A DNA stretch of 64,000 bases from Escherichia coli (GTDB lineage Bacteria > Pseudomonadota > Gammaproteobacteria > Enterobacterales > Enterobacteriaceae), in assembly GCF_050920415.1 (NCBI RefSeq), contig NZ_CP169310.1, one strand, 5' to 3'. Within the stretch, counting starts at the first letter, position 1, and every line of letters starts with the position of its first letter. A model generated the notes under the pieces. It saw nothing but the letters and a program-made list of their open reading frames with translations, did no database searches and was not told where the DNA came from. Positions 61,188 to 61,260 of the stretch are shown one piece after another. Position numbers and translations under genes: made by a program.

Positions 61188-61260
61188 CAGTAGCAGTAGC
61201 AGTAGCAGTAGCAGTAGCAGTAGCAGTAGCAGTAGCAGTAGCAGTAGCAGGAACAACAAC
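61188..61260. repeat. Hexanucleotide tandem repeat (CAGTAG)12
   Basis: Twelve perfect CAGTAG units, present after repeat copy 2 but absent at the corresponding position after copy 1. Confidence 0.9.

Follow-up and report, generated by a model that had tools for sequence, protein, structure and literature searches.

The window (the whole stretch of 64,000 nucleotides analysed here) contains an F-type nick sequence, GTGGGGTGT/GGTGCTTT, on the plus strand at 48873-48889 without a mismatch. To its left lie traM, traJ, traY and traA on the minus strand, and to its right an SLT gene. This arrangement marks the plus strand as the one transferred and places the leading region to the right of 48.9 kb. 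A tract of CAGTAG units is found 12.3 kb from the nick site, inside this IncF leading region. The leading genes are all encoded on the minus strand, and the database annotation of the closest plasmids agrees; they are transcribed in the order ydbA (DUF3560), ydcA (methyltransferase), the spacer with the tract, copy 2 of a 620-bp repeat, ssb, a DUF905 gene, a ParB-like gene, psiB, psiA and hok, followed by an IS66-family insertion, repeat copy 1, an IS110-family insertion and a DUF932 gene. Table 1 gives the coordinates of the features discussed below.

Table 1. Features at and around the CAGTAG tract (window coordinates).
Feature	Position	Strand	Remarks
Repeat copy 1 (Frpo1-type)	52425-53044		Self-BLAST; no CAGTAG array after it
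Plasmid ssb	60070-60522	minus	ATG at 60522, MAVRGINKV...
Repeat copy 2 (Frpo2 module upstream of ssb)	60564-61183		Self-BLAST
Poly(Ala-Thr) ORF	60994-61275	minus	93 aa
Tract-bearing spacer	61150-61300		Plus strand T-poor and purine-rich; gene-sense strand pyrimidine-rich, C>G
Poly-Leu ORF	61164-61427	minus	87 aa; overlaps the methyltransferase stop codon
(CAGTAG)10.5 array	61188-61250	plus (transferred strand)	10 full units; minus (gene-sense) strand reads (CTGCTA)n / GCTACT
Two GC-rich hairpins	61328-61385		Past the methyltransferase stop codon
ydcA-type class I SAM-dependent methyltransferase	61427-61990	minus	187 aa
DUF3560 (ydbA)	62037-63398	minus	
Start of a third, more diverged repeat copy	63912-64000		Self-BLAST; 86% identity, cut by the window end

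Tandem Repeats Finder describes the array as 10.5 copies of period 6 over 63 bp of the plus strand, with 100% matches and no indels. A regular-expression scan returned the same 63 bases as the sole array with at least four copies of a 3-7 base unit in the 64-kb window. As in a microsatellite (VNTR), a short unit has been copied head to tail, here in 10.5 perfect 6-base copies, and a perfect 63-bp periodic run in 64 kb cannot plausibly be a product of chance. An earlier note on this DNA had described a perfect CAGTAG tract of 12 units at 61188-61260; the perfect repeat and its start stand, but the count and the end do not, since 61251-61260 reads GAACAACAAC, which is flanking sequence outside the array.

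By self-BLAST of 60523-61426, copies 1 and 2 of the 620-bp repeat are 99.2% identical. The tract starts four bases past copy 2; beyond copy 1 (53045 onward) the homology fades, leaving only a short purine-rich stretch, and the array is absent, as the earlier note had claimed. When 60523-61300 was folded as single-stranded DNA, a long hairpin was predicted at about 60569-60880, with its loop at a palindrome near 60728 and z = -7 against shuffled sequences. This hairpin matches the Frpo1 and Frpo2 stem-loops that lie upstream of ygeA and ssb in F (PMC9849209). The gene map and the predicted fold together also bear out the placement of the tract between the end of the methyltransferase operon and the ssb single-strand promoter.

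Several features of the surroundings are recorded in their own right. Insertion elements enclose repeat copy 1, of the IS110 family on one side (51176-52261) and of the IS66 family on the other (from 53185 to about 55957). The IS110 insertion comes between the single-strand promoter of copy 1 and the genes that would normally be under its control, a 95-aa ORF (50719-51006) and the DUF932 gene (49779-50528). A perfect 2 x 100-bp tandem duplication (55758-55957) sits where the IS66-family element that separates hok from repeat copy 1 ends, and overlaps the start of the IS66-family tnpA (55123-55773, minus strand). A 68-aa ORF (60548-60754, minus strand), wholly inside the Frpo hairpin, is called either 'single-stranded DNA-binding protein' or 'hypothetical protein', depending on the record; this is very probably an annotation artefact.

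Past the methyltransferase stop codon, diverged plasmids retain the first of the two hairpins (about 61328-61351) with compensating changes, and a T6 run on the plus strand follows the second (61357-61369). The latter, GCGCCGCCGGCGC with its T6 (61357-61385, plus strand), is a terminator-like hairpin antisense to all leading genes, and would make sense only if a plus-strand transcript crosses the spacer; Hafnia and Citrobacter relatives have A-run/hairpin arrangements that resemble it. Also on the plus strand, the tract and both its flanks (61168-61263) form about 32 consecutive A-R-N triplets, in the register AGC AGC AGG AAA AAG AAG AAC (AGT AGC)n AGG AAC AAC AAC. The A-R-N motif is bound by the distal face of Hfq. 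The run is relevant only given a plus-strand RNA.

Copy-number variation and the published yddA repeat

The spacer between ydcA and ssb is found in more than 5,000 PLSDB plasmids of Escherichia, Klebsiella, Salmonella and Shigella. In 19 of the PLSDB plasmids the array has 2.5 to 13.5 copies and changes in whole-unit steps, the alleles among the retrieved database plasmids being 2.5, 4.5, 5.5, 6.5, 7.5, 8.5, 10.5 and 13.5. Every retrieved database plasmid has a perfect array with a half-unit end, including a class whose left flank is unrelated to that of the window. Scanning metagenome contigs for the right junction of the array yielded 120 complete arrays of 1.5 to 13.5 units (median 5, mode 4.5-5.5), which end in the canonical left flank in 118 of the 120 cases. 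Arrays of at least 10.5 units make up only 4% of these 120, so the window carries a long allele. Alleles above 13.5 units are absent from the 19 plasmids and 120 contigs, which either an upper bound or a bias of short-read assembly could explain.

Over 6,415 flanking bases the window differs from pCFSAN004181P by one substitution and from pCFSAN004180G by one substitution and two single-base gaps, yet the three have 10.5, 7.5 and 8.5 units, respectively, which are the whole-unit differences among near-identical sequences expected of a microsatellite (VNTR). A plasmid approximately 4-6% diverged from the window has the same allele of 10.5 units, which indicates that lengths recur independently. 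Between 7 and 13 alleles occur on each of the common flank haplotypes, and from this we conclude that the tract mutates far faster than single bases do, and by whole units. The variation in length between isolates that the earlier note had proposed is thus strongly confirmed across related plasmids and contigs, and had in fact been published before.

Plasmid F (NC_002483) lacks ydbA/ydcA as well as the CAGTAG array, and therefore cannot be used for sizing the tract. Between a homologous GC hairpin and Frpo2, F instead has CTGTTACTG followed by an imperfect (TTCTTCCTC)3 pyrimidine run (about 8100-8160), across which a 118-aa 'hypothetical protein' is annotated in antisense. The alleles as short as 1.5 copies, and the presence in F of homologous CTGTTACTG...TTCTTCTTC flanks with no array, support the earlier claim that the tract arose by local expansion.

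Three side observations concern the sequences compared. The R100 (NC_002134) stretch 45000-94000 starts just upstream of psiB, beside an IS4-family element, with ssb and the methyltransferase gene outside it. In CP056614.1 (1-764), a group II intron (ltrA) is found close by on the left side of the tract, where the window has the ssb promoter module and ssb, in keeping with the polymorphism for group II introns described in F33 plasmids. Contigs with an enterobacterial methyltransferase (L020, L021, L028, L030, L032; 95-98% identity, 62% in L032) are assigned to genomes or bins of Oscillibacter, Oscillospiraceae, Acinetobacter idrijaensis, Collinsella and Chryseobacterium, almost certainly through errors of binning or contamination.

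Wang et al. (2018, mSphere 3:e00137-18; PMC6052338) described a variable 6-bp GCTACT repeat in 'yddA' of F33:A-:B- and other IncFII plasmids, with plasmid pairs that are identical or 3-8 nucleotides apart differing in repeat number. They counted the repeats in finished plasmid sequences (pHNMC02 has 7 in their Table 2) and treated yddA as a gene, with no discussion of function or of the placement with respect to Frpo2. The reverse complement of CAGTAG is CTACTG, of which GCTACT is a rotation, so that the unit is the same. In the 50 kb of pHNMC02 that we read, which include the leading region, the sole GCTACT run is at 25762-25803; it has 7 units, reproducing the published count, and lies at the same locus, between the methyltransferase gene (25017-25580) and ssb (26423). 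Given the rotation of the unit and the position and count in pHNMC02, the tract of the window is the published 'yddA' repeat locus and, on this sequence comparison, was already known.

Fold, spacer composition and reading frames

The earlier note had further suggested that a change in tract length might alter spacing or structure. The tract lies approximately 300 nt beyond the base of the Frpo hairpin, outside the hairpin in the predicted fold and hence not part of the Frpo/ssi promoter hairpin of the transferred strand, and is itself predicted to be largely unpaired or weakly self-paired. Folding 60523-61430 as single-stranded DNA with 0.5, 2.5, 4.5, 6.5, 8.5, 10.5, 13.5 and 20.5 units gave an identical minimum-energy structure of the Frpo hairpin each time, with a mean pairing probability of 0.70-0.71 at every length and a shift in total fold energy of less than 6 kcal/mol over the whole range. 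Pairing of (CAGTAG)n with itself is limited to isolated GC/TA pairs worth about 0.1 to 0.3 kcal/mol per unit, and a structural role was rejected on this basis. A promoter scan found no sigma-70-like site in 60400-62100, and no Rfam family matched 59500-62500 at E <= 1, the only hit being a chance match of 17 bits against a gathering score of 270. Since the fold is constant and there is neither a sigma-70-like site nor an Rfam family in these ranges, the suggestion of a structural effect is unsupported, and a change in spacing has no obvious partner to act on. Sites for primase (CTG), EcoP15I (CAGCAG), Dam and Dcm were considered as well; none matches the transferred-strand sequence.

On the gene-sense strand, 61150-61300 has a pyrimidine content of 0.67-0.75 and a C/G ratio of up to 2.1, and most of the diverged ydcA loci likewise have 60-130 nt of pyrimidine-rich, C>G sequence directly after the hairpin, with the sequence itself unconserved. 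The C/G ratio of the spacer is 2.1 in the window, 2.2-2.5 in Enterobacter, Hafnia, Klebsiella grimontii and Entomohabitans, and 12.5 in F, where the pyrimidine content reaches 0.97. That this composition is kept in F and in most diverged loci makes a constraint on the spacer possible, even if not on tract length, and we suggest that the composition may be under some constraint. The spacer could serve as a stretch of RNA for Rho loading or insulation, or, within the transferred strand, as a linker free of structure, and simple repeats would arise easily in a pyrimidine-rich spacer of this kind.

Carried further, this leads to the proposal that the spacer is a functional cis element whose length the repeat tunes, either as a Rho-loading insulator against read-through from the methyltransferase operon into Frpo2 and ssb, which would act once the plasmid is double-stranded, or as an unstructured single-stranded spacer that allows the Frpo module to fold independently. 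We consider this proposal rather unlikely. It is favoured by a composition that is conserved without sequence conservation, directly past a conserved terminator-like hairpin, and by the largely unpaired state predicted for the tract. UC or CC dinucleotides are the preferred contacts of the Rho primary site. A rut site is an unstructured RNA stretch, C-rich and G-poor, of some 70 nt or more; over 60-nt windows the C/G ratio rises to 2.1 here and to values from 2.2 to 12.5 in relatives, and the repeat, (CUACUG)n, contains neither dinucleotide. Moreover, two of the diverged loci (L026 and L031) show little or no pyrimidine or C>G bias, the range of 1.5 to 13.5 units on every haplotype speaks against an optimum of length, and the Frpo fold is independent of the tract.

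The two ORFs that span the tract raise a second alternative, namely that a genuine small protein gene encloses the tract, whose copy number would set the length of the product: either a tail-anchored protein or micro-peptide with a poly-Leu/Phe membrane segment (MPVICLLLMLLF(L)nFFFFLLL), or poly(Ala-Thr) 'yddA'. Many records list both ORFs, under the name of hypothetical proteins and with varying lengths, and the 93-aa ORF is apparently the historical 'yddA', to judge from its GCT ACT reading frame. In favour of a gene, a 6-bp unit always preserves the frame, F (MFFSDVIFLWLPCLLLFFFFFLFLFF...) and Hafnia have a hydrophobic open frame at this position as well, a TGA stop past FFFFLL(L/P) is common to most variants in both plasmid classes, and some of the substitutions in the flanks are silent when read in the Leu frame. 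Hydrophobicity, however, comes free, because pyrimidine-rich DNA of any kind encodes Phe, Leu, Ser and Pro; on this account we rate a real micro-protein as distinctly improbable.

The remaining evidence also weighs against a gene, as neither the frame nor the start codon of the tract-spanning ORFs is conserved in relatives. Single-base indels in a run of A and a run of G break or restart the long poly-Leu frame, its overlapping ATG is AAG in one plasmid, and its internal ATG (MPVIC...) is AGA in the commonest class. Among 129 sequences this ORF also tolerates a deletion of ten bases, an insertion that shifts the frame and loss of the stop codon. No Shine-Dalgarno sequence can be read at a proper distance, and in diverged ydcA loci with 61-68% identical methyltransferases (from Enterobacter, Hafnia, Raoultella, Klebsiella grimontii, Citrobacter and Entomohabitans) the frame through the conserved upstream hairpins differs. 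A variation of 24 residues in a hydrophobic segment would be hard to square with a working membrane helix. As for yddA, its C-terminal half falls within the Frpo repeat module and is unrelated between plasmid classes. Neither ORF has an NCBIfam or PHROG match at E <= 0.01. From these observations, neither the 93-aa nor the 87-aa ORF is probably a gene, and the earlier view that both are artefactual appears justified: a 6-bp unit preserves every frame, and ORF callers consequently output poly-Leu and poly-Ala/Thr 'proteins' of varying length.

It could also be imagined that the repeat is a length-tuning device whose alleles, through the extent of the unstructured spacer beside Frpo2, set either the read-through from the methyltransferase operon to ssb-psiB or the speed at which the complementary strand arrives at the Frpo2 hairpin. 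For ssp2, a different single-strand promoter of F, such a roadblock has been demonstrated (preprint 10.64898/2026.01.09.698686). We hold this idea to be very improbable, and put at the same low level, taken jointly, a variant of it in which a plus-strand RNA with the A-R-N triplets of 61168-61263 and the T6 terminator of 61357-61385 binds Hfq. If length tuning were true, plasmid populations would carry heritable, rapidly reversible variation in functions of early establishment. Lastly, simple repeats are error-prone in some sequencing technologies, but an assembly or sequencing artefact is refuted by the independent occurrence of the same array and junctions in thousands of complete plasmids and 120 independent metagenome contigs, and by the counts in finished plasmids (PMC6052338).

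Interpretation and comparison with known systems

We therefore return to the reading that we consider likely, which is that the tract is a neutral slippage microsatellite (VNTR) in a pyrimidine-rich, non-coding spacer between the ydbA-ydcA terminator hairpins and the Frpo2 module that precedes ssb-psiB. The array would have originated by expansion of a CTGYTACTG-like seed, and whole units would be gained and lost by slipped-strand mispairing during replication. Its length would be effectively neutral, as judged from its position outside the promoter hairpin and from the almost complete lack of structure that it is predicted to add to the transferred single strand. Most likely, as far as sequence analysis can tell, the CAGTAG tract has no function of its own.

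As it stands, the tract has little biological importance, and its practical use is at most that of a plasmid typing marker. As it outpaces single-base change, it could separate near-identical IncF resistance or virulence plasmids; this use is limited because the same length recurs on diverged backbones, i.e. the marker is homoplasic. For annotation, we stress that the tract seeds two "hypothetical protein" families of variable length that are best read as artefacts. The wider pattern is that a pyrimidine-rich spacer lies upstream of Frpo2 in most of the diverged plasmids examined, and that different simple repeats have arisen there.

Phase-variable contingency loci of Haemophilus, Neisseria and Campylobacter are perfect short-unit arrays in which slippage far outpaces point substitution, and they switch genes by frameshift or by a change in -35/-10 spacing. 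The CAGTAG tract resembles these loci in its perfect short-unit array and fast change. Unlike them, it has a 6-bp unit that cannot shift a frame and does not lie between promoter elements: there is no sigma-70-like site in the range scanned, and the Frpo hairpin ends some 300 nt away.

With the Frpo/ssi class 1 single-stranded DNA promoters (Masai and Arai 1997; Couturier et al. 2023, PMC9849209), the tract shares its location, in that it abuts the promoter-distal end of the Frpo2-bearing repeat. In contrast to these promoters, however, it is missing from the other repeat copies, lies outside the hairpin and leaves the predicted fold unaffected. The 9-bp CAACAGCCG repeat in traD of IncF plasmids (PMC6052338), of which no run of two or more units was found in the window, is likewise an in-frame, copy-variable backbone repeat, used descriptively for distinguishing near-identical plasmids, but it lies in a proven protein-coding gene, while the CAGTAG tract lies in a spacer and its ORFs lack the signs of genes. 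The 'yddA' repeat (PMC6052338) has the same unit, the same place between the methyltransferase gene and ssb and the same variation in number as the tract of the window; compared with the plasmids described there, the window represents a large IncFIA/FIB-type relative (closest records about 225 kb) with a long allele, and nothing essential differs.
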